This document shows, piece by piece, positions 1 through 9,743 of a DNA stretch of 64,000 bases. The notes below the pieces were generated by a model that saw only the letters and a program-made list of their open reading frames with translations, ran no database searches and was not told the origin of the DNA. Positions within the stretch are counted from its first letter, which is position 1. Every line of letters begins with the position of its first letter. The position numbers were made by a program, and so were the translations under genes. The DNA comes from Candidatus Saccharimonadota bacterium (GTDB lineage: Bacteria; Patescibacteriota; Saccharimonadia; Saccharimonadales; UBA10212), in the NCBI GenBank assembly GCA_013815775.1, contig JACDFN010000002.1, forward strand, positions 64,717 to 128,716, read 5' to 3'.

Positions 1-843
1 ACGCAAAGCGTAGATTCCACGTCCTATTAAAACAAATCGTTTATCTTTTATAAGCTCGTTATGGATTGCTTGAGTGGTTACGTCTTTGCGCTTAAAGTCA
101 CTATCTTTAATGGCGCCTGCAATTTCACTAAAGTGCATGGGCTTACTGTGGTCATGCAAAATGACATAGATCTTATCGCGGATATTCTTAGGGTTAACCA
201 TTGGCCACTTAGTGAGCCCCCAGCGGTTATGAAGATTGGCTATATTTTTAGAGATACTTGCCAGCGCCTCCACGTGCTTCTTATCTTTATTACCAACTTT
301 TTCGGCAATGGCTTCAATACTGGTTGGTTCTCCAAGCTTTTTTACGGCTTCTATGATTTTACTTACATGCTCTCTGATAGTTTTTTCCGTATGCTCGGCG
401 GCTAGTCCCACGGAATGGAAAAAATGATCATTATCGTCTAATACCGCAACGGCCGGGCTTAAGTTTGCTAAAAAAGCTACTCTTGATTGATCAATTTTAG
501 AGTTCTCTTTCGTCAAACGTCCTGTAATATCGGTAATCCTAGCTACCTTACCCATTTCTACCAAGTGATTACTTAGTACTAAAGCAACCTGCTTCATGTA
601 GGGTAGATCTTCCTTAGCGGCCAACCTAAGTTTTGTGATCACGGCCTTTTCTAGTTGCCTAACCCGCTCACGGGTAATACCAAGTAGTTCACCGATCTGC
701 TCTAGTGTCTCCCTGCGATCGAACAGGCCAAATCGGCGAGCAATAATCTCTCGTTCTCTTTCACGCTCGATTGTACCAAGAATATCTTTTATTACTTTCT
801 CAATATCAAGCTGTTCTGGTTGTGCGGCGGAAGATTCTTCCAT
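1..843 (-). CDS. sigma-70 region-4-like HTH protein with C-terminal winged-helix (HARE-HTH-like) domain; 3' end cut by window edge
   Basis: Not in the ORF track because it runs off the left edge. My translation of the minus strand from the ATG (complement of 843-841) is open to position 1 (281 codons). It reads MEESSAAQPEQLDIEKV...RETLEQIGELLGITRERVRQLEKAVITKL (sigma region 4-type HTH), then ...IYVILHDHSKPMHFSEIAGAI...RFVLIGRGIYALR. The three + strand track ORFs here are low-complexity antisense shadows. Confidence 0.6.
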   Translation of the reverse strand, partial: MEESSAAQPEQLDIEKVIKDILGTIEREREREIIARRFGLFDRRETLEQIGELLGITRERVRQLEKAVITKLRLAAKEDLPYMKQVALVLSNHLVEMGKVARITDITGRLTKENSKIDQSRVAFLANLSPAVAVLDDNDHFFHSVGLAAEHTEKTIREHVSKIIEAVKKLGEPTSIEAIAEKVGNKDKKHVEALASISKNIANLHNRWGLTKWPMVNPKNIRDKIYVILHDHSKPMHFSEIAGAIKDSDFKRKDVTTQAIHNELIKDKRFVLIGRGIYALR

Positions 844-1055
844 GACTTATTGGTACCTGTTACAGAAATAATTTCTGTTGTTAAATTATGTATAACTATA
901 TAACTTATAGTTAGAAAAGTCAACACCTAGTTAACTAGGCTTATTGTATCACGTATTAGACGTAATGGCACAATCCGTTTATGTATATTTAACCTAGTAT
1001 TATTTTGTCAATCTGGAAATATTGTGGATAAATAGTGACAATTTCACAAAGTATA

Positions 1056-3335
1056 TTACCGGCGCTTTTTTCTAGGCGGGTTGGCTAATAATTTAAGGGC
1101 ATCTTTTTCGGTAATCTTCTTAGGGTCTGTAGCTTTTGGTATTTTTACGTTAATTTTACCGTCGGTAACATATGGACCGTAGGGGCCATTTAAAACCTGT
1201 ACCTCGCCGTAGTCGGCGAGTAGTTTTTTGCTATCAGCTTTTTGCTTAGAGATAATAACTTTTCGAGCCTCGGCCTCAGAAATTTTTAGGGGATCGTGTT
1301 CCTTGAGGCTAATAAAAGCAGATCCCACCTTGAGGTAAGGCCCAAAACGACCTATATTAGTTGTAATTTCTTCGTCTTTTAGGGTGTTGCCCACAATTCT
1401 CGGTAAGGCAAACATTGGTATTGCTTGCATCAAGGTAACATCGTCTAAAGTAGTCCCCTCAGGAAGAGGTGCAAAGTGGGGTTTTGGTGCCTCTTTGTCT
1501 TTTTTATCTTTCGGGGCCTCTCCGAGTTGCAGCACTGGACCGTACCGTCCGTAACGTACAAATACATTTTTGCCAGATTTGGGATCCTTTCCAAGTTTCC
1601 GCTCCTGGGATGCTTCTGCTCGGCTGACATTTTCAGACTTTTTAATTAGCGGATGAAAGTGCTTATAAAATTTGTCTAACATCTCCTTCCAGGTCAATTT
1701 ACCGTCGGCTATATCATCTAATTCACCCTCGGCATTAGCTGTAAAATCATAATCGATGACTGAGGCAAAGTTTTTTACTAAAAAGTCAGTTACAACTTCG
1801 GCGAGCTGGGTGGGTAGCAGCTTCGACTTATCGGCGCCAACTGTAGACATCTGAGAAAGTTCATCGACTTTTCCATTTTTAAGCACCAATTGATTCACCT
1901 TTCGGGGCTCGCCGTCCAAATCTTTCTTCTCTATGTATCCTCTGTCCTGGATAGTTCCAATAGTGGGTGCGTAGGTGCTGGGGCGGCCAATTCCTAGCTC
2001 TTCTAATTTTTTAACTAGGCTAGCTTCGGAGTAACGACTAGCGGGCCTAGTAAACGTTTCTAGAGCTTCCATTGACTTTAGAGGTAACTGTTGACCCTTT
2101 TCAATAGATGGCAGTATTTTATCGTCCTTGCCACCTCCATAAACCTTGAAGTAGCCGTCAAACACCAAGATCTCGCCGGTAGCTATAAACTTGTCTGTCC
2201 GGTCACTCATGGCAATAGTAGCCTCTGTACGCTGAACAGATGCTGGAGTCATTTGGCTAGCCAATGCCCGGCGCCATATTAGCTCGTATAGCTTTTTTTG
2301 ACCCGAGTCTGTACCAGCGCTTGGCTTATTAAAGTGCGTAGGCCTAATAGCTTCATGGGCCTGTTGAGCGGACTTACTCTTGGTTTTGTATTGGGTTGGC
2401 CGGCTATATTTTTCACCGTAGGTAGCAACTACGTATTCCTTAGCAGCGTTTACTGCCAGCTGAGACAGGTTGGTACTATCGGTACGCATATACGTTATAT
2501 GGCCATGCTCATACAACTTCTGGGCCACTGTCATGGTTTGTCTTACACTGTAGCCGAGCCTGCGGGAGGCTTCCTGTTGAAGGGTGCTAGTTGTAAAAGG
2601 CGCACCTGGTGATCTGCTGCCGGGTTTTTGTACAATGTCGTCGACTTGGAAAGTTGCTTTATTTGCAGAGAGGAGAAATTCGCGGGCATTTTTAGTGTTC
2701 CTAAGTTTCTTTTCTAGCTCAGCTTCTAGATTGTGTCCCCCGGCGTTAAACACTGCTGAAACTTTGAATGAACTCGCATGCTTAAAGTCCTTAATTTCTC
2801 GCTCACGCTCAACAATTAGACGAACAGCTACACTCTGTACCCTTCCAGCGCTAAGGCCTGTTCGAACCTTTTTCCACAGAACCGGACTAAGTTCATAACC
2901 GACCAGTCTGTCCAATATTCTGCGTGCTTGCTGGGCGTGTACAAGCTTAAGGTCAATAGTTCGGGGATTGGCTACAGCAGCAGTAATAGCTGGCTCTGTT
3001 ATTTCGTGAAAAACGATTCGCTTAGTTTTTTCCGGATCAATATCCAGTACCGCACAGACATGCCAAGCAATTGCTTCACCCTCCCGGTCTTCATCACTTG
3101 CCAGCCATACCGTGGCTGACTTGCTAGCTTTTCGCAGTTCAGCAGCTACCTTCTCCTTATCTTGACTTATCTGGTAAGTGGGCTTGAAGCCATTAGATAC
3201 ATCAACTCCTATATCTTTTTTGGGCAGGTCTCTAATGTGACCAAAACTGCTCATAACAGCAAAGTCCTTACCCAAATAGCGGGCTATAGTTTTGGCTTTA
3301 GCTGGGCTTTCTACGATAACAAGGTTTTTAGGCAT
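1056..3335 (-). CDS. topA: DNA topoisomerase I
   Basis: 759-aa ORF. TOPRIM N-terminus (LVIVESPAKAKTIARYLG, SDEDREGEAIAWH), type IA core with the ITYMRTDS active-site Tyr context, and a Lys-rich C-terminal tail. Confidence 0.95.
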   Translation of the reverse strand: MPKNLVIVESPAKAKTIARYLGKDFAVMSSFGHIRDLPKKDIGVDVSNGFKPTYQISQDKEKVAAELRKASKSATVWLASDEDREGEAIAWHVCAVLDIDPEKTKRIVFHEITEPAITAAVANPRTIDLKLVHAQQARRILDRLVGYELSPVLWKKVRTGLSAGRVQSVAVRLIVEREREIKDFKHASSFKVSAVFNAGGHNLEAELEKKLRNTKNAREFLLSANKATFQVDDIVQKPGSRSPGAPFTTSTLQQEASRRLGYSVRQTMTVAQKLYEHGHITYMRTDSTNLSQLAVNAAKEYVVATYGEKYSRPTQYKTKSKSAQQAHEAIRPTHFNKPSAGTDSGQKKLYELIWRRALASQMTPASVQRTEATIAMSDRTDKFIATGEILVFDGYFKVYGGGKDDKILPSIEKGQQLPLKSMEALETFTRPASRYSEASLVKKLEELGIGRPSTYAPTIGTIQDRGYIEKKDLDGEPRKVNQLVLKNGKVDELSQMSTVGADKSKLLPTQLAEVVTDFLVKNFASVIDYDFTANAEGELDDIADGKLTWKEMLDKFYKHFHPLIKKSENVSRAEASQERKLGKDPKSGKNVFVRYGRYGPVLQLGEAPKDKKDKEAPKPHFAPLPEGTTLDDVTLMQAIPMFALPRIVGNTLKDEEITTNIGRFGPYLKVGSAFISLKEHDPLKISEAEARKVIISKQKADSKKLLADYGEVQVLNGPYGPYVTDGKINVKIPKATDPKKITEKDALKLLANPPRKKRR

Positions 3336-3427
3336 AGGTTAGCTACGGTGCTTAATTTAATAATGATAAACGAAAAGCCGTTCAGACACCAAGACTACGC
3401 TACTTTAGGTGATTTTGGCAAAACAAA

Positions 3428-4297
3428 TCAAGCCTTTATCCATCGTCCATTTCCTTGGGCTCTAATATATCCGGATACTTCAAGAGTCGTTAGGGCCGAG
3501 TTAACCGAGGAACTAGTTAGTTTAGATTCTAACGCCAACTCCTCCTGTGAATGTGTACCTTTTGATATTAATTTAAACACTAACTCTATATGCGGAGCTC
3601 CACGAAAGACTTTTTGCTGCTTTCTTTCAGGATTTATACCTAAAGCAAAAAATACATCAGCGGCAGAGGTGACTGGTATGGCACCACTTTTTATTAAATT
3701 ATTGCAGCCTTCGCTCATAGCACTATTTATATTGCCGGGTACAGCCATGACTGTTTTGCCCTGTTCTAGAGCGAATTGAGCAGTATGGAGCGTACCACTG
3801 TTAGCCGCAGCCTCTGTGATCAGCAACAAGTCTGCCAAACCACTGACTATCCGATTTCGGGCTATAAAATTAACTTTAAAGACTTCAGAACCGGCTTGGC
3901 ACTCACTCGTTAGAGTACCTCCATTTGTTAAAATTGATTTCGCTAAGTTGTAATGAGCAGCAGGATATACTCGGTCTAGTCCAGTAGGTAACACAGCTAC
4001 GGTTGTTGCTCGTGCTTCCAGAGCAGCCCAGTGGGCTGTGGCATCAATCCCGTAAGCTAAACCGCTAATAATTGTCACGCCGGCTCTTCCTAGTTCACCA
4101 ACAAGATCCTGCGTAATTAATCGGCCATAAGAGCTAATTTTTCGGCTGCCAACAACCGCTACTTTAGGGCTGTTCATCCACTCACTAGGTGCCTTACCAA
4201 TATAGAACAAAGGATTTGGGGGTTTGTGGAGGTTAATTAAGCCAGGTGGGTAGCCGGGATCTTTAACCGTAAGTGCATTGACTTTATAAGGAAACAT
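3428..4297 (-). CDS. dprA: DNA processing protein DprA (Smf)
   Basis: 289 aa. DprA Rossmann-like core (VAVVGSRKISSYG, GLAYGIDATAH, GTLHTAQFALEQGKTVMAVPG) and a C-terminal winged-helix-like tail. Lies upstream of topA, a common arrangement. Confidence 0.9.
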   Translation of the reverse strand: MFPYKVNALTVKDPGYPPGLINLHKPPNPLFYIGKAPSEWMNSPKVAVVGSRKISSYGRLITQDLVGELGRAGVTIISGLAYGIDATAHWAALEARATTVAVLPTGLDRVYPAAHYNLAKSILTNGGTLTSECQAGSEVFKVNFIARNRIVSGLADLLLITEAAANSGTLHTAQFALEQGKTVMAVPGNINSAMSEGCNNLIKSGAIPVTSAADVFFALGINPERKQQKVFRGAPHIELVFKLISKGTHSQEELALESKLTSSSVNSALTTLEVSGYIRAQGNGRWIKA

Positions 4298-4306
4298 GTA
4301 AATATA

Positions 4307-4335
4307 TTGACTTTATGTAATTTTTTTGCTAAAAT
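4307..4335 (+). promoter_or_regulatory. sigma-70-type promoter (TTGACT-17 nt-TAAAAT)
   Basis: TTGACT at 4307-4312, exact 17-nt spacer, TAAAAT at 4330-4335. Points rightwards, away from dprA. Confidence 0.5.
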
Positions 4336-4341
4336 AGCAAT

Positions 4342-4721
4342 CCGTAAGCATGATTACCATGCTTGCCGCACCTTATACCCCCAAATCTAACAACATTGTT
4401 AGATTGTTTAAGAGCAGTTGGCTGTTCTTTAAGTTGTACCCTCCACTTAATCAGCCAAATACGATACCTGTACTCCTAAAAGTATACCTCGTGTAAATGC
4501 TCTTAAACAAACTAACCCCTTTAACTCGCCCAGCCAGTTTTTTTGAACTACGGTTGGGGTCCCCCAAGTGGGTAGCGGGTTCCATGTGAATGGAATGGTT
4601 TAGTTCTCGAACTACGACCGGCTCGAATGTACTTGCTTTTTCGCAGACTTCGCAGCTCCAGCAACGGTGGGTTGAAGGGTGTAATAGGCTCCGGCGGTGC
4701 CCACCCCCTCCGGAGCCTTTT
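4342..4721 (+). ncRNA. unclassified structured RNA or long cis-regulatory leader (candidate)
   Basis: Bounded by the promoter above and a GC hairpin plus T-run. No credible ORF. Local hairpins at 4346-4364 and 4384-4405. Long-range complementarity between CCCCCAA (4378-4384) and TTGGGG (4554-4559), and between CCACTT (4443-4448) and AAGTGG (4566-4571). Family not recognised. Confidence 0.4.
4687..4721 (+). terminator. rho-independent terminator-like hairpin
   Basis: GGCTCCGG (4687-4694), 15-nt loop, CCGGAGCC (4710-4717), then TTTT (4718-4721). The T-run exists only on the + strand. Confidence 0.55.
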
Positions 4722-4741
4722 AGGTTAGAATAGTAATTAGA

Positions 4742-5503
4742 ATGAACAGTAAAGAATTTACTCAGAATGCTTTTAAGGTTGCAGCTGAAGCAAAAACCCG
4801 CTCTGTTTCGCAGATGCTGGAAATTCGTCAACACCAGCCCCTAGTCAGCCGTCTCGGAAAAATTGCACTGGGTAAAAGTTTAGCAGCGTTTTATCCTCCT
4901 ACGCTTAACGGATACCCTATGCTTGGAGGAGGCTGTGAGCAAGTTGTGTACGCTTCTGATACCGAAGTACTTAAAGTGATAGGCCCGTCAGTAACTTTCA
5001 GTAAAAGAGAAGCCCGACAACAAGCAACCAAATCGCAACTAATTTTCGACGGGTCTCGCTCATATCTGGGCGGGCATTTACTAGAGACATCCTTTGAACC
5101 AATCGAACTTCGTGGCCTTTCAGCTACAATGGCAATTCAGCCCAGAATAACCGAAGGCCATGGTTATCAAAGTTCAGAAGAGGTTGCAGAAATGCTGGAC
5201 GAAGAATATAATTACGAACAACTATCCAGTCTTTATGAATCAATTTCCGAACTTCATAAAGACACCTCACTTTATCCAGATATCATTGGTCCAAATAACA
5301 TATATTTAACTACGGCAAATAATCAAGCGGAGTTAGTTATAGTCGACACTGAACTCATTACTCGAGAAGTTCAGTCCCGGCCTCTAGGCAAAACAGGAAA
5401 GACGGCGGGTGGAATCATTTTATCTAAGCTAATTTTTTGGCAAAGTAAATTACAAAACTCTAACCCAACACGTTCCTGGTCTGGGGAATCAATTTACCAC
5501 TAA
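4742..5503 (+). CDS. hypothetical protein with protein-kinase-like (PKL) fold motifs
   Basis: 253 aa. Gly-rich loop LGGGCEQVVY, candidate Lys in EVLKVIG, catalytic-loop-like YPDIIGPNNIYL (D..(+5)N), DFG-position IVDTEL. The start is uncertain; internal Met codons at 4814 and 4916 are possible. The 3' end overlaps pth convergently by 44 nt. Confidence 0.5.
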   Translation: MNSKEFTQNAFKVAAEAKTRSVSQMLEIRQHQPLVSRLGKIALGKSLAAFYPPTLNGYPMLGGGCEQVVYASDTEVLKVIGPSVTFSKREARQQATKSQLIFDGSRSYLGGHLLETSFEPIELRGLSATMAIQPRITEGHGYQSSEEVAEMLDEEYNYEQLSSLYESISELHKDTSLYPDIIGPNNIYLTTANNQAELVIVDTELITREVQSRPLGKTGKTAGGIILSKLIFWQSKLQNSNPTRSWSGESIYH

Positions 5504-6098
5504 AAATAAATTCATTAATAAACTCATTCGCCTCCCGATATATAAGTGTTAGGTTTTCTTGCTCTTGTTTAGTGAATTTACCAAGAACGAAATTTGTAGG
5601 CTCGGCTTTGTCGCTTGTCTCGCTTCCGATTCCTATACGCAGACGGTTAAAATCATCCCCTATATGCTGTATGAGAGACCCTACTCCATTGTGGCCAGCG
5701 TCGCTACCTCCTACCCTAGTCCTGAGCTGACCGAATTTAACAGCTAACTCGTCATAGATTGCCAGCGCACTAGAATTATAAACTCGGTAGAAATGTTGAA
5801 TCGCAACTGCTGCTTCCCCGCTATTGTTCATATATGTGGTCGGTTTGCATAAGATTACTCTAGTATGGCCCAGCGTCTTCACACTCATATGACATTTTAA
5901 GTCTTTTTTCGACACCCAGTCTGGGAAGTCGTTTGATTCGGCAAAGAAGTTCAGTGTTGCAAAACCGATATTATGCCTCGTCTCATTGTACTTAGCCTCT
6001 GGGTTGCCCAAACCGATGAGCAGTACGGTTTTATTAGCTCCTAGAGAGTAAAGTGGCAAAGAGTCACTAACTATTGGTTTCTTTTGAAATAGTGCCAT
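5460..6098 (-). CDS. pth: peptidyl-tRNA hydrolase
   Basis: 212 aa. Pth signature LLIGLGNPEAKYNETRHNIGF, plus ...GGSDAGHNGVGS... Confidence 0.9.
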   Translation of the reverse strand: MALFQKKPIVSDSLPLYSLGANKTVLLIGLGNPEAKYNETRHNIGFATLNFFAESNDFPDWVSKKDLKCHMSVKTLGHTRVILCKPTTYMNNSGEAAVAIQHFYRVYNSSALAIYDELAVKFGQLRTRVGGSDAGHNGVGSLIQHIGDDFNRLRIGIGSETSDKAEPTNFVLGKFTKQEQENLTLIYREANEFINEFIFSGKLIPQTRNVLG

Positions 6099-6116
6099 AT
6101 GTCTATTCTAGTCCCT

Positions 6117-7433
6117 TTAGTGTTTCTCTATAAACCAAAACATAATTGGCGTACCAGCCAGTGGCCAAACCTCTCGGAATTTACGCTCTAAATAGCGTCT
6201 ATAACTCCAATGCAAAAACTTAGTATGAGCCCCAAATATCTTAAAGCTAGGTAATCCGGTACCATCTTCTTGAACCATATAATTAAGTTTGGGCTGATAA
6301 CTTTTTAGGCCTGCCGGGGGGTGTTGGTCTACTACCTGGCGTAACCAACGGTTTAGCTCGGGAGTCGAAAACCGAGTTTTACGAGCAATATCAATTTCCA
6401 TAACCAAGTCGTAAATTTTGGGAACGTTTTGTCCTGTCACTGCGCTAGTGAAAACTAGTGGAGCCCAAGGGGCGAATGAATAATGGTAGGCAATTTGTGG
6501 TGCCAGGCGGTCCCGGCTAAAGCTATCCTTATCAAAATCGTCCCACTTGCTTACAATTAGTATCAAGCCCTTGCCGGCATCCTTAACCATGCCGGCGATT
6601 TTTTGGTCTAACTGAACATTTAATTCATTGGCGTCCATAAGCAGAAGCCCTATATCTGCTTGCTCTATGGCAGCAAGTGACCTAAGAACACTAAATTGCT
6701 CTACGCCGCGCTCTATCTTGCCGCTACGCCTTATGCCGGCCGTATCCATAAGTTCTATCTCTCGGTCATGATAGCGAATTACCGCTCTATTAACGTCCCG
6801 AGTAGTACCAGCATGCTGAGCAACAAGGGCTTGCTGTTTATGGCCCAAAGCATTAAAGAGTGATGATTTTCCAACATTCGGTCGACCCAGAAGGGCTATA
6901 CGTATTCTATCTTCATCTTCGGTTATTTTAGCGGTTGGAAGTTGCTTAATAATGATGTCAAGAAGATCATCGATTCCCCTTCTTTGTGTCGTACTAGTGG
7001 CTATTAGCGGTCTTATTCCTAGCTTTAGCCACTCCGTCAAGTCAGCCCTTCGATTCTTGTCAATTTTATTAACTACTAGCAGTACTGGCTTTTTACTTTT
7101 TAAGGCCATTTTAGCTACTTTGCGGTCTTCGTCTGTTATCTGAACATCCGCTTCCACTACAACTAAAATTAAATCGGCGCTTTCAGCAGACTGAGTAATC
7201 TGGTCTTGGATAGTTAATTCAAAATCATCTGCTGCTTGCTTCAACCCGGCGGTATCTACTAACCAAAAATTTTTAGATCCCCAGTTTGCTTTAGACGTCA
7301 CACTATCTCTGGTAGTACCAGGCTCGTCTGCAACAATCGCTTCTCGCCGCCCCAAAATAGAATTAAAAAGGCTGGATTTACCAACGTTGGCTCGGCCGAC
7401 TATAGCCACTATCGGGGCTGATTTAGTACTCAT
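6117..7433 (-). CDS. der: ribosome-associated GTPase Der (EngA)
   Basis: Two tandem P-loop GTPase domains (GRANVGKSSLFN and GRPNVGKSSLFN, DTAG motifs, NKID/SKWD) plus a KH-like C-terminus. The track start at 7472 lies inside the upstream terminator hairpin, so I prefer the ATG at 7433, which has TATAAT (7444-7449) 10 nt upstream. Confidence 0.9.
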   Translation of the reverse strand: MSTKSAPIVAIVGRANVGKSSLFNSILGRREAIVADEPGTTRDSVTSKANWGSKNFWLVDTAGLKQAADDFELTIQDQITQSAESADLILVVVEADVQITDEDRKVAKMALKSKKPVLLVVNKIDKNRRADLTEWLKLGIRPLIATSTTQRRGIDDLLDIIIKQLPTAKITEDEDRIRIALLGRPNVGKSSLFNALGHKQQALVAQHAGTTRDVNRAVIRYHDREIELMDTAGIRRSGKIERGVEQFSVLRSLAAIEQADIGLLLMDANELNVQLDQKIAGMVKDAGKGLILIVSKWDDFDKDSFSRDRLAPQIAYHYSFAPWAPLVFTSAVTGQNVPKIYDLVMEIDIARKTRFSTPELNRWLRQVVDQHPPAGLKSYQPKLNYMVQEDGTGLPSFKIFGAHTKFLHWSYRRYLERKFREVWPLAGTPIMFWFIEKH

Positions 7434-7459
7434 TACTTCGGTTATTATAGCTGGGCTAC

Positions 7460-7494
7460 AAAAAAACCGCACTCTTTAAAAGTTTAGTGCGGTT
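7460..7494 (-). terminator. rho-independent terminator after the response-regulator gene
   Basis: On the minus strand: AACCGCACT / AGTGCGGTT 9-bp stem (7465-7473 / 7486-7494), followed by a T7 run (complement of the A-run at 7460-7466). Lies 20 nt after the stop at 7514. Confidence 0.6.
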
Positions 7495-7513
7495 TTTAAT
7501 GGGTTATTTGCTG

Positions 7514-8347
7514 TTAGGCTTGAGTGTTGTCACCAGACCCTTGTGCGGGTCCAGTAGGGTTTTGAGAACCATCATCGGCGTGGCCGTCATCACCTGCTCC
7601 GTCAGTTGGAGGTGAACTCACTGGTGCATCGGTCCCTGGGACAGAAGTTCCTAGTCCGCCTTCACTGTTCGAGCTTGAATCTGAAGAAGAATCCTCATCT
7701 CCGGCTGGGGGTGATGACATTGTGGGTGCGCCACCTGCAAAATCGTTGACTTGCTGAGTTACTGTATCCTTTTCTTCCTCGGTGCTCTGTTGTTCATTGG
7801 CGTTTGCCGAGTCGCCGCTAGCTGGATTGCTGGACGGAGCATCTGCGCCGTCTGCTGGCTGATTAGTTGGTTGAGTGTTGTCGTCTTGCATAGTTCGCTC
7901 TCTTTCTTGCTTATTAATTATTGGCGAGGTCTCACCCGAATCCGTGGCGGGTGCAGGGGGCGTCCCTGCATCTGCCTGATCCGGCTGTAGTACCTCGCGT
8001 ACTACGCGGACGAAATCCTCCAGTGTTACCTGGGATTTCACTAAATACTTTATCACGCCAAGACTCTCGCCGCGAGTCCTATCTTCAGCCTGCCCCAGAG
8101 CGGTCATCATCACAACCTTGGTATCGCCCATTTCTGGGGCTGCCCTTAGAGTTTCTAGCATTTCAAACCCGCTCAATTTAGGCATCATTACGTCGGCGAT
8201 GATTAGATCTGGTTTTTCCTTCATAGCGACCACCAGTGCTTCTTCACCATCGCTAGCAGTTACAGTTTTATAGTTCTCTGCTTGCAGACGCATTTCAAAA
8301 ATTTCACGCAGGTTGTTATCGTCTTCTACTAACAGTATTTTAGGCAT
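7514..8347 (-). CDS. response regulator: REC domain fused to a ~150-aa low-complexity acidic Pro/Ser/Gly/Thr-rich tail
   Basis: 277 aa. Residues 1-120 are a canonical receiver (ILLVEDD, DLIIADVMMP, VVMMTALG). The remainder (QPDQADAGTPPAPATDSGETS...SSSDSSSNSEGG...) has no recognisable output domain. Confidence 0.8.
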   Translation of the reverse strand: MPKILLVEDDNNLREIFEMRLQAENYKTVTASDGEEALVVAMKEKPDLIIADVMMPKLSGFEMLETLRAAPEMGDTKVVMMTALGQAEDRTRGESLGVIKYLVKSQVTLEDFVRVVREVLQPDQADAGTPPAPATDSGETSPIINKQERERTMQDDNTQPTNQPADGADAPSSNPASGDSANANEQQSTEEEKDTVTQQVNDFAGGAPTMSSPPAGDEDSSSDSSSNSEGGLGTSVPGTDAPVSSPPTDGAGDDGHADDGSQNPTGPAQGSGDNTQA

Positions 8348-8420
8348 GTAAATGTTTAGAACTCTCGGTTATTTTATGCTTATGCTAAATATAATTGTAG
8401 CATATTCTCATTAGACTTAA

Positions 8421-9743
8421 TTAACTATCCAAAGGGCTAGTTGTGATGGCTTGCTTCTTCTGTATCTCTAATGCCTGGTTTGTTGTCAACCTAGGGATGT
8501 TAATAAAAAAAGTACTGCCTTTGTCAAGCTCGCTTTCCACCCAAATACGACCATTGTACAGTTCAATAATCTTTTTACTTATAAACAGGCCCAGTCCTGT
8601 ACCGCCAACACTTCTAGTCATGGAATTATCAACTCTGTAAAATTTTTGAAACAAGTGTGACACGTCTTCGGCTGGAATGCCCGGACCAGTGTCTTGAATT
8701 TGAATTTGGGCTACCGAAGCGTCGCCTGTAAGACGAATCGTTACGGTGCCTTCGGCAGTGTACTTAACTGCGTTGTCTATTATGTTTTGAAGGACTTCGC
8801 GCATTCGGTTAGGGTCAATGTATGTATAATAAAGCGGTCTAATTACCTTTCCCCCGCCCGTCCCGTCGCTAGAGCTCATGATAAATTTTAATTCTAAGCC
8901 TTTTTCCTTGGCGTGGAAACGGCCTGCTTCTGCCACTTGCTCTACAATCTCTCCTAACTCAACAACCGCAGGGTAGCTTGCCAGGCGTCCGTCCTCAGCC
9001 TTGGAGCTTGTTAATAAATCTCTAAACAATACGCTGAGGTGTTGAGTAGCCACCGTGGCTTTCTCTAAGTATTTACGGGCGTTAGCGTCCACCTTGCTAA
9101 TCTTTTCGTTTAGTGCCAAAGCAAGATAGCCATCTATAGCCGCTAAAGGTGTTCGCATTTCATGGCTGGCAGTACTAATAAACTCTGATCGCTGAGCCTC
9201 TTCTTGTCGCTCTGCAGTGATGTCTCTAAAAACGCCAACCACACTTTCCGCACCCTTACTTCCGCCAGATACAACGGGCGATACTATTAAAGAAATTGGT
9301 ATACGTTTACCCCCTCGTGTGGCTAACCAGCTATTGCTGTCACGGACTGGTTGGGCGGTAGCTAAGGCTTTAGCGAAGGCGTGGTCAAGGAGCGCACATG
9401 GCTCACCCTTTTCGTTCACTAAATTCAAAATATTATGAAAATCAAGCCCAACTGCTTCGCTGGGCGGCCAACCAGTGATGTCGCTAGCGGCGGGGTTTAG
9501 TAAATGAATTTTATTATCTTTGCCCACCATAACTACTCCGTCAGCAATAGCGCTCAGGATAAAGTCTGAATTCCATTTTTGATCTCTAGTTATTTCTTGA
9601 CTTCTGGCTAAGCCGCCGGTAACAGTGACTTTTTTAGTATTAACTCTGGGTTTTCGGGAGCTCCAAATAGCTAAACCAATACATGCAAATACAACCGTCA
9701 AACTAAGTGCGACTAATAAGTATGTAGAGTTGATATAGCCCAC
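8421..9743 (-). CDS. PAS-domain sensor histidine kinase
   Basis: 440 aa. N-terminal TM, PAS-like segment (ILSAIADGVVMV...), HisKA H-box FISTASHEMRTPL, HATPase_c N/G boxes (NIIDNAVKYT, DTGPGI, GGTGLGL). Confidence 0.85.
   Translation of the reverse strand: MGYINSTYLLVALSLTVVFACIGLAIWSSRKPRVNTKKVTVTGGLARSQEITRDQKWNSDFILSAIADGVVMVGKDNKIHLLNPAASDITGWPPSEAVGLDFHNILNLVNEKGEPCALLDHAFAKALATAQPVRDSNSWLATRGGKRIPISLIVSPVVSGGSKGAESVVGVFRDITAERQEEAQRSEFISTASHEMRTPLAAIDGYLALALNEKISKVDANARKYLEKATVATQHLSVLFRDLLTSSKAEDGRLASYPAVVELGEIVEQVAEAGRFHAKEKGLELKFIMSSSDGTGGGKVIRPLYYTYIDPNRMREVLQNIIDNAVKYTAEGTVTIRLTGDASVAQIQIQDTGPGIPAEDVSHLFQKFYRVDNSMTRSVGGTGLGLFISKKIIELYNGRIWVESELDKGSTFFINIPRLTTNQALEIQKKQAITTSPLDS

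Follow-up and report, generated by a model that had tools for sequence, protein, structure and literature searches.

A conserved structured RNA element beside dprA in Saccharibacteria, probably a new family of stand-alone RNA genes

Large, intricate bacterial RNAs that lack an assigned function are rare, and several of them (OLE, GOLLD, ROOL and raiA) are now targets of structural and functional work. Homo-oligomers are formed by several RNAs of this large orphan kind. Here we analysed a conserved element in a 64,000-nt stretch of DNA (the window; contig JACDFN010000002.1 of assembly GCA_013815775.1, positions 64,717 to 128,716) from a Candidatus Saccharimonadota bacterium. Saccharibacteria live as ultra-small epibionts, and their reduced genomes measure about 1 Mb. 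The element occupies the interval 4300-4745 of the window, between dprA (3428-4297, minus strand) and an open reading frame (ORF) of 253 amino acids (aa) (4742-5503, plus strand). An initial annotation, made from the letters of the window, had described this interval as a unit running from a promoter to a terminator and had offered two explanations, a stand-alone structured small RNA or a terminator-based leader of the downstream gene. We found that it is very probably a stand-alone structured RNA gene of a new family (window positions ~4342-4721, plus strand). What would be new is the RNA family; the general kind, a stand-alone structured non-coding RNA, is familiar.

The element shares with OLE, ROOL, GOLLD, raiA and HEARO a length of several hundred nucleotides and an ornate covarying multi-helix fold with invariant single-stranded motifs. 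Like them, it is a stand-alone gene of a single lineage whose biochemical function is unreadable from context. Unlike them, it is found in Saccharibacteria, members of the candidate phyla radiation (CPR), and not in Bacillota, Actinomycetota or phages, and it occupies one fixed chromosomal locus with no evident associated protein gene. Their Rfam models did not match it, either at gathering thresholds or at E <= 10.

A conserved unit from promoter to terminator

Homologs were collected with two approaches. One genome per GTDB species was scanned with DprA as the guide, which gave 43 loci. The 32 closest were in metagenome-assembled genomes of Saccharibacteria, with DprA identities of 46-62%. 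With the intergenic DNA of the window as the nhmmer query, the element was detected upstream of dprA in 30 of the 30 Saccharibacteria loci with enough upstream DNA (E down to 7e-41) and in none of the 11 loci from non-Saccharibacteria phyla. Matches reached E = 1e-94 in relatives with a DprA identity of only 37-62%. A metagenome scan was carried out with a pattern of invariant blocks (GAAGGGTG, 14-44 nt, GGTGCCCACCCCC), and at least 120 contigs matched. Among the 120 matches listed, 112 contigs had the full RNA and 8 were chance matches, so at least 112 contigs contain it. Our copy set comprised 122 full-length copies, 116 of which were non-redundant (<95% identity). These 116 copies were 314-574 nt long (median 404) with a median pairwise identity of 62%, and 71 columns of their alignment were at least 97% identical. 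Across the orthologous regions flanking dprA, the element was thus conserved, and its helices covaried beyond shuffled controls (below).

The conserved block begins at a promoter and stops at a U-run. The near-consensus promoter, recorded in the initial annotation as TTGACT-17-TAAAAT pointing away from dprA, was found as described and is conserved in homologs. Its -35 hexamer TTGACT lies at 4307-4312 of the plus strand (TTGACA in 94 and TTGACT in 20 of 114 homologs) and its extended -10 element TGCTAAAAT at 4327-4335, with TG (4327-4328) ahead of TAAAAT (4330-4335) and a spacer of 17 nt. In a promoter scan this was the top site within 3300-6200, with a score of 10/12. Every one of the 114 copies having upstream sequence contained TTGAC[AT], a spacer of 16-18 nt (17 nt in 103/114) and TAnnnT; the extended form TGnTAnnnT was present in 112/114.

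At the other border we found a terminal hairpin (4686-4718, plus strand) with a 9-bp stem (4686-4694/4710-4718) and a 15-nt loop, CGGUGCCCACCCCCU (4695-4709), followed by the UUUU run of an intrinsic terminator (4718-4721). At least three T residues follow the stem in 114 of the 116 homologs. A GC-rich hairpin with TTTT had been reported here as strand-specific, with a stem of 8 bp where we measured 9. On the minus strand the hairpin is without a T-run, and the terminator is therefore indeed strand-specific. Our own terminator scan overlooked it because that scan was limited to loops of at most 8 nt.

The predicted transcript is about 380 nt long (4342-4721, plus strand), with a start expected ~7 nt past the -10 element (4340-4344) and an end in the U-run. 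The profile match in the window covers 4337-4729 and is the sole copy there. The element thus carries a promoter and a terminator of its own where conservation begins and ends, together with compensatory changes beyond controls, as expected of a stand-alone non-coding RNA.

Covarying helices and the functional strand

The structure was derived from an anchor-guided alignment, a profile alignment, mutual information with average product correction and inspection of variants. Corrected mutual information replaced an earlier helix screen by pair 'types', which was dropped because G/U-rich columns dominated it; RNAalifold on the raw gapped alignment recovered three helices only. The core consists of a 5' hairpin, a composite helix (Pext and H3) capped by a hairpin with the loop UGUACCCUCC, a long-range helix (H5) around a variable domain, and the terminator hairpin.

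For the covariation test, three contiguous core segments from 50 diverse copies were joined with NNNNN and aligned with MAFFT, and 41 pairs were scored. In the five core helices 93.0% of cells were paired, against 81.9 +/- 0.4 in shuffles (0/500 as good). Double changes were seen in 221 cells (68.5 +/- 8.4 in shuffles, 0/500), and 24 of the 41 scored pairs changed on both sides (2/500). The covariation score was 0.353 compared with 0.151 for shuffled alignments (0/500), and it fell to at most 0.123 when partners were slid by 1-3 columns. Each of the five whole-structure measures was above the slid controls and was reached in 0-2 of 500 shuffles. The B3 helix scored low (69% paired) because a 1-nt difference in loop length shifts the window-like sequences in the MAFFT alignment; in the profile-based count its four inner pairs were 89-100% paired.

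The 5' hairpin (H1, 4344-4366, plus strand as are all features below), seen earlier as 4346-4364, has 9 bp (4344-4352/4358-4366) and a 5-nt loop. A single hairpin of 6-13 bp was present at this place in 114/114 testable homologs, with differing sequences. It is followed by A1 (4368-4383), a C-rich and formally single-stranded segment defined by conservation, with the near-invariant sequence GCACCUUAUACCCCCA. Next comes H2 (4387-4402), in which CUAACA (4387-4392) pairs with UGUUAG (4397-4402). This hairpin had been placed at 4384-4405; it exists, but its 3' arm has a second, covariation-backed partner at 4512-4516. Many homologs have an H2 enlarged by inserted hairpins, and two (L121, L141) lack it.

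The second pairing of that shared arm is Pext, formed by GUUAG (4398-4402) with CUAAC (4512-4516), which extends H3 (4405-4416 with 4498-4509) across a 2x2 internal loop; AA separates the 3' strand of H3 from the CUAAC of Pext. Independent compensatory variants of Pext were AAGU:ACUU, GGAAUAA:UUAUUCC, AUGAA:UUUAU, AAUC:GAUU and GAAUAG:UUAUUC, and pair 4402:4512 was GC in 102 copies, AU in 7 and GU in 4. Taking H3 together with pair 4402:4512, both sides change in 9 of 13 pairs. Within H3, pair 4410:4504 was UA in 74 and AU in 35 copies, and pair 4414:4500 was GC in 71, AU in 18, GU in 10 and UA in 5.

The H3 domain contains the B3 hairpin (4430-4449), with a stem of 4430-4434/4445-4449 and a 10-nt loop, UGUACCCUCC (4435-4444), whose columns are at least 97% identical. 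Stem pair 4431:4448 was AU in 81, GU in 9, UA in 6 and GC in 4 copies. The remaining apical part (4450-4497) is variable, measuring 30-130 nt in homologs. Many of these have UAGUAUA and GGCAAUUGCUUAAGCUA motifs there, which are missing from the window.

H5 is formed by CCCUUUAAC (4517-4525) and GUUGAAGGG (4671-4679) and encloses domain 3. Its pair 4525:4671 was CG in 107, GC in 6 and AU in 3 copies, and its pair 4522:4674 was U-G in 113/116. Domain 3 (4527-4665) is variable, with at least two architectures among subfamilies and several hairpins in the window type. In that type the helix H7 (4621-4627 with 4649-4656) covaries: pair 4621:4656 was GC in 90, AU in 9 and GU in 5 copies, and pair 4625:4651 was GC in 45, AU in 21, UA in 5 and CG in 4. 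A near-invariant GGUGG (4666-4670) stands 5' of the 3' strand of H5, with 4667-4670 at least 97% identical and 4666 below that level. About half of the copies have an optional extra hairpin ahead of the terminator. In the terminal stem 98.8% of cells are paired and 9 of 10 pairs, all but the innermost, change on both sides (4693:4711 was AU in 86 and GC in 30 copies); the columns of its loop are at least 97% identical.

Two homologs have insertions exactly between the 3' strand of Pext and the 5' strand of H5 (window 4516/4517), of ~190 nt in L028 and ~35 nt in L115. The two helices are therefore separate modules.

Two long-range complementarities proposed from the window did not become part of this structure. 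CCCCCAA (4378-4384) and TTGGGG (4554-4559) are literally present but unsupported as a pair, with 4554-4559 in a non-conserved part. CCACTT (4443-4448) and AAGTGG (4566-4571) are also there as written; however, 4445-4448 belong to the conserved B3 stem with 4431-4434, and ~42 homologs have GUGAGUCC in place of the domain-3 sequence. A pseudoknot of the B3-loop CCAC with the domain-3 GUGG was rejected on the same ground, since the B3 loop is unchanged in those homologs.

We then asked which strand carries the function. The plus strand of 4340-4725 folded at -143.6 kcal/mol compared with -101.5 +/- 5.2 for shuffles (z = -8.07, 0/100 shuffles as good), and the minus strand of the same region gave z = -3.23. 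Within the helices, G-U outnumbered A-C by 447 to 132. On the minus strand U4522-G4674 would turn into a conserved C-A mismatch. The G-U excess, this U-G pair, the promoter, the U-run and the fold z-scores identify the plus strand as the functional one. A function of the minus strand, as a long 5' leader of dprA-topA or as a spacer in a der-pth-dprA-topA transcript, has in our view only a slim chance of being correct. It would fit the arrangement of der, pth, dprA and topA, which are all on the minus strand with the block directly upstream of dprA or topA, and pth transcripts could read through the hairpin, which has no T-run in that direction; the minus-strand fold is also above chance (z = -3.2). 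Against this stand the G-U excess and the mismatch just described, the promoter and U-run conserved on the plus strand at the exact borders of conservation, the much stronger plus-strand fold (z = -8.1) and the retention of the block in loci without dprA.

To a small-protein gene we give virtually no credence. The window does have ORFs of 30-48 aa on the plus strand, but their start codons are not conserved in homologs, and no conserved ORF was found among the 116 copies, in which the longest plus-strand ORFs have a median of 41 aa. Copy lengths (314-574 nt) fall in all three classes modulo 3, the conserved blocks contain stops in most (two of three) frames, and variation tracks base-pairing, not codon positions. 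The initial annotation had seen no real ORF in the unit and had dismissed an antisense ORF (4451-4834, minus strand, 127 aa) as noise. We agree on both counts: no frame or start is conserved, and the antisense ORF runs through a non-conserved stretch of the RNA into the sporadic 253-aa gene, which rules out its conservation in relatives without that gene.

Overall, the conserved promoter and terminator, the covarying helices, the plus-strand G-U pairs and the ubiquity in the clade bear out the first of the two original proposals, a stand-alone structured RNA. As an explanation of the whole locus we consider a stand-alone structured RNA gene of a new family the best one and likely to be right, the part concerning mechanism being inferred.

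Known RNA families and gene context

Searches with Rfam 15 matched no known family in the interval. At gathering thresholds the 64-kb window yielded three tRNAs only, and with E <= 10 and permissive filters the region 4250-4800 yielded one chance match to a long non-coding RNA only. The 17 homolog loci searched at gathering thresholds gave one unrelated cyclic di-GMP-II riboswitch only, and nine homolog loci at E <= 10 gave four chance matches only. That riboswitch (L023, 1075-1157; 54 bits, gathering 53.5) is on a Patescibacteria contig, a few kb away from the RNA. We also found no description of the RNA in the searchable literature on non-coding RNAs of Saccharibacteria, Patescibacteria or the CPR.

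The candidates that deserve most attention are the universal RNAs, namely RNase P RNA, transfer-messenger RNA (tmRNA), 6S RNA and signal recognition particle (SRP) RNA, in a form so divergent that it escapes covariance models. The element resembles bacterial RNase P RNA, including its diverged CPR forms (PMC8172020), in length and apparent ubiquity in the clade. As in RNase P RNA, a core is kept while helices grow, shrink or vanish, and there are long-range helices and candidate pseudoknots. It resembles tmRNA (ssrA) in length, strong promoter and several long-range pairings; moreover, the translation-rescue gene pth is adjacent, and on one contig a prophage-like island adjoins the RNA, as at tmRNA genes. 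Diverged CPR RNase P RNAs that were found only below noise cut-offs do exist (Lui et al. 2021, PMC8172020).

Nevertheless, ten copies gave no match at E <= 10 to the Rfam models of RNase P (RF00010/RF00011 and clan), tmRNA, 6S (RF00013) or SRP RNA. ARAGORN detected no tmRNA in the window (three tRNAs elsewhere) or in the 72 homolog loci scanned. Hallmark motifs occurred in 0-6 of 116 copies: RNase P CR-I (GGAAAGUCC, at most 1 mismatch) in 2, CR-V (ACAGAAnnCGGCUUA, at most 3 mismatches) in 2, the tmRNA T-loop motif in 0, CCACCA in 6 and the SRP domain IV pattern in 3. The element has no P4 and apparently no P1, neither a tRNA-like domain nor a 3' CCA, and no conserved reading frame or start for a tag peptide of the tmRNA type, its conserved blocks being helices or stop-bearing in most frames. 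In the supported structure the 5' end forms its own hairpin and the 3' end forms the terminator hairpin. The ends thus appear not to pair with each other, which would leave no P1, acceptor or closing stem, and the multi-domain layout is unlike the 6S rod. In a rough duplex search, nt 5-20 reached a median of just -4.3 kcal/mol with a 22-nt stretch close to the 3' end. The diverged CPR RNase P RNAs, by comparison, were found with the Rfam model at lowered thresholds in 35/35 circular CPR genomes, two of them Saccharimonadia (Lui et al. 2021, PMC8172020). Since all 35 genomes gave a model-recognisable RNase P RNA, an RNA that scores nothing is unlikely to be one. Taken together, a divergent universal RNA is very unlikely, and the earlier statement that the unit is not a tmRNA, SRP RNA, RNase P RNA or T-box was upheld by Rfam, ARAGORN and the hallmark motifs. 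A search of the homolog flanks for a canonical tmRNA or tRNA turned up only tRNAs and is not informative as an exclusion.

Pfam matches confirmed DprA, Pth, Der and TopA in the window. Beyond dprA lies topA (1056-3335, minus strand), and beyond the 253-aa ORF lie pth (5460-6098, minus strand) and der/engA (6117-7472, minus strand). Wherever flanks were available, the gene order was der-pth (convergent with the RNA), the RNA, and dprA-topA (divergent). dprA is absent in ~13 loci, where topA lies 174-870 nt upstream of the RNA (at most 370 nt in eleven). The next recognised downstream gene is mostly pth on the opposite strand, in ~20 loci at most ~10 nt from the 3' end of the RNA. A same-strand downstream gene of the 253-aa ORF family was found in 6 loci only (the window, L005, L049, L068, L072 and L092). 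This family is sporadic between the RNA and pth, at 28-32% identity. Its product in the window had no Pfam match, so that the 'kinase-like' label given initially was not confirmed.

This gene context refutes the second original proposal, a terminator-based leader (riboswitch or attenuator) of the 'PKL-fold' gene, i.e. the 253-aa ORF, and we regard it as scarcely credible. The proposal drew on the position of ATG 4742, which stands 21 nt past the U-run, and two competing folds of the RNA (described below) recall the two exclusive near-isoenergetic pairings of one strand, with a 3' terminator, that characterise such leaders. However, there is no conserved downstream gene, the competing folds leave the terminator stem untouched, and the 253-aa gene has its own -10-like box, TAGAAT (4726-4731), 10 nt ahead of its ATG.

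The promoter of the RNA and the sole plausible promoter of a leaderless dprA appear to overlap back to back (window 4295-4340). The dprA ATG is 10 nt from the -35 element of the RNA, and minus-strand TTAGCA and CAATAT are reverse complements of parts of the extended -10 and -35 elements of the RNA. Binding of RNA polymerase at the two promoters could therefore be mutually exclusive. More generally, genes in the window look leaderless, with -10-like TAnAAT boxes 5-12 nt before many start codons (for example 6099-6112 ahead of pth and 4726-4741 ahead of the 253-aa ORF). With this arrangement, dprA/topA might be controlled by the act of transcription itself, either through promoter occlusion or because read-through from pth collides with it. 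The proximity of the -35 element to the dprA start codon speaks for it, as does the apparent overlap of the only -10/-35-like elements for leaderless dprA with the RNA promoter on the other strand. It leaves unexplained the covarying helices and 71 invariant columns over 380 nt, the invariant terminator loop, and the retention of the element 174-370 nt from topA in loci without dprA. We therefore think such an effect highly improbable as the explanation of the locus; it would be an added effect at most, beside a structured RNA gene.

A phage or plasmid origin was considered and rejected. No blastn match to the RNA was obtained in GenBank phages or in PLSDB plasmids, and one IMG/VR contig only had a full copy (L164, IMGVR_UViG_3300049064_000004, 1-8444, with the RNA at 7973-8370); two further motif scans of the viral collection gave no additional copies. 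The neighbours on L164 are RecT-like (5738-6670), PD-(D/E)XK-FtsK/SpoIIIE (3814-5748), Dcm (1524-2603) and Dam (718-1617) genes, with no dprA or topA within 8 kb of the RNA. We take this for a prophage or island that inserted next to the RNA gene, and not for an RNA borne by a phage. Two further contigs (L022, L028) are labelled Limnocylindrales/Limnocylindria (Chloroflexota), yet they have the Saccharibacteria RNA with dprA-topA, and L028 also has der-pth. They are probably mis-binned.

Invariant motifs, alternative folds and a possible role

Three conserved single-stranded motifs, A1, the B3 loop and the terminal loop, have a UACCC[CU]C core in common. The best duplex partner of all three is the G-rich strand 4660-4682. 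For the terminal loop with 4660-4677 the median across homologs was -13 to -15 kcal/mol. Candidate partners of A1 are GGUGC in the terminal loop (4696-4700) or, in an alternative fold, the 3' strand of H5, here B5. Modelling suggests two candidate pseudoknots, one of GGUGG (4666-4670) with CCACC (4701-4705), stacked on H5, and one of GCACC (4368-4372) with GGUGC (4696-4700), in which 4369 is C or U opposite G. These two putative pseudoknots would explain the invariance of the terminal loop. A pairing of A1 UUAUA (4373-4377) with UGUAA (4680-4684) was rejected, as variants at 4375 are uncompensated and copies with the extra hairpin lack the 3' partner.

A1 together with CUAAC (4387-4391) repeats the motifs of an internal strand, B4, which consists of CUAAC and CCCUUUAAC. 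As a result, there are two sets of rival structures: the hairpin CUAACA:UGUUAG or Pext, and A1:B5 (11-12 bp) or H5 (B4:B5). We compared these folds in 59 homologs. The energy with B4:B5 forced minus that with B4 blocked had a median of -2.1 kcal/mol, and when B4 was blocked, A1:B5 formed in 56/59 copies. In unconstrained minimum free energy (MFE) folds, 41 copies had B4:B5 and 17 had A1:B5. The window belongs to the latter group, and RNAalifold likewise picked A1:B5. As the main partner of B5, A1 was nonetheless rejected, because covariation at 4525:4671 favours B4:B5; A1:B5 was retained as an alternative state only. In these models the alternative folds would fit a conformational switch or a guide to folding, with the 5' segment (A1 and CUAAC) mimicking B4 and taking its place opposite GUUAG and the G-rich strand.

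The strong conserved promoter, the presence in every sampled relative, the modular periphery and the invariant single-stranded motifs point to an RNA that is probably abundant and that may act in trans, as the core or scaffold of a ribonucleoprotein (RNP) or possibly as a ribozyme. Its three C-rich UACCC[CU]C motifs might then be binding surfaces for a protein or for a G-rich nucleic acid. The mechanism as a whole, a trans-acting RNP or scaffold RNA with C-rich loops and two folds, is tentative, and we would call it possible but doubtful.

The role of a classical base-pairing regulator was weighed against this one. The C-rich motifs (CCUCC, CCCCC) resemble the motifs through which RNAs of the RsaE/RoxS type pair with G-rich sites in their targets. 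The element also resembles CsrB/RsmZ and 6S RNA in being stand-alone, with a strong promoter and an intrinsic terminator and a short motif repeated in single-stranded loops. It differs from these RNAs in having three motif copies only, a far larger size and a conserved long-range architecture. It also lacks GGA motifs and the 6S type of rod around a central bubble, and the host genome is apparently almost without Shine-Dalgarno (SD) sites to target. SD-like tetramers at -16 to -5 were seen in 3 of the 55 ORFs of at least 150 aa, compared with a background of 4.3% per 12-mer. With SD sites apparently so scarce, the obvious G-rich targets would be gone. An RNP, scaffold or ribozyme role is preferred over a base-pairing regulator because of the large modular architecture and this apparent scarcity of SD sites. 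Anti-SD mimicry as the main mechanism was downgraded, given that SD-like motifs upstream of the window genes are at background level.

Several points weigh against our interpretation of the element and its role. The transcript ends and the abundance are deduced from sequence signals alone. Homologs were gathered via DprA similarity and an exact motif pattern, and the phyletic range given here is the one sampled in this way. The invariant motifs do not vary, which puts their partners beyond the reach of covariation. In the region of the A1:B5 alternative the sole variable position, 4525:4671, backs B4:B5 rather than A1:B5. A1:B5 could be an incidental attraction of a C-rich and a G-rich strand. 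The apparent scarcity of SD sequences also weakens the idea that the CCUCC loops act on ribosome-binding sites.

Given its near-perfect promoter, its 71 invariant positions and its retention in every sampled relative despite their reduced genomes, this RNA of about 400 nt is very likely important to Saccharibacteria. The RNA could point to CPR-specific biology and would add a marker gene for annotating Saccharibacteria genomes. The present analysis supplies its sequence, a structure model, 116 homologs and a two-state folding hypothesis open to testing. We think it improbable that the RNA is an essential lineage-wide machine (a ribozyme or RNP core) with a strand-mimic switch and thus a new functional class. 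If it were, it would supply a function done elsewhere by proteins or by a universal RNA, for instance in translation, RNA processing or DNA uptake.

Two atypical loci concern the invariant motifs. The copy in L026 (3550-3966) has a plain terminal hairpin without the conserved loop and is also without the A1 ACCCCC and the domain-3 GUGGG. The joint loss of three motifs is a hint of their interaction. On one metagenome contig (L122) we found two divergent copies of the RNA, at 976-1377 (minus strand) and 2907-3311 (plus strand). In the second copy, single G residues are deleted from the G-rich strand and from the terminal loop; this copy may be a duplicate in decay or an artefact of assembly.

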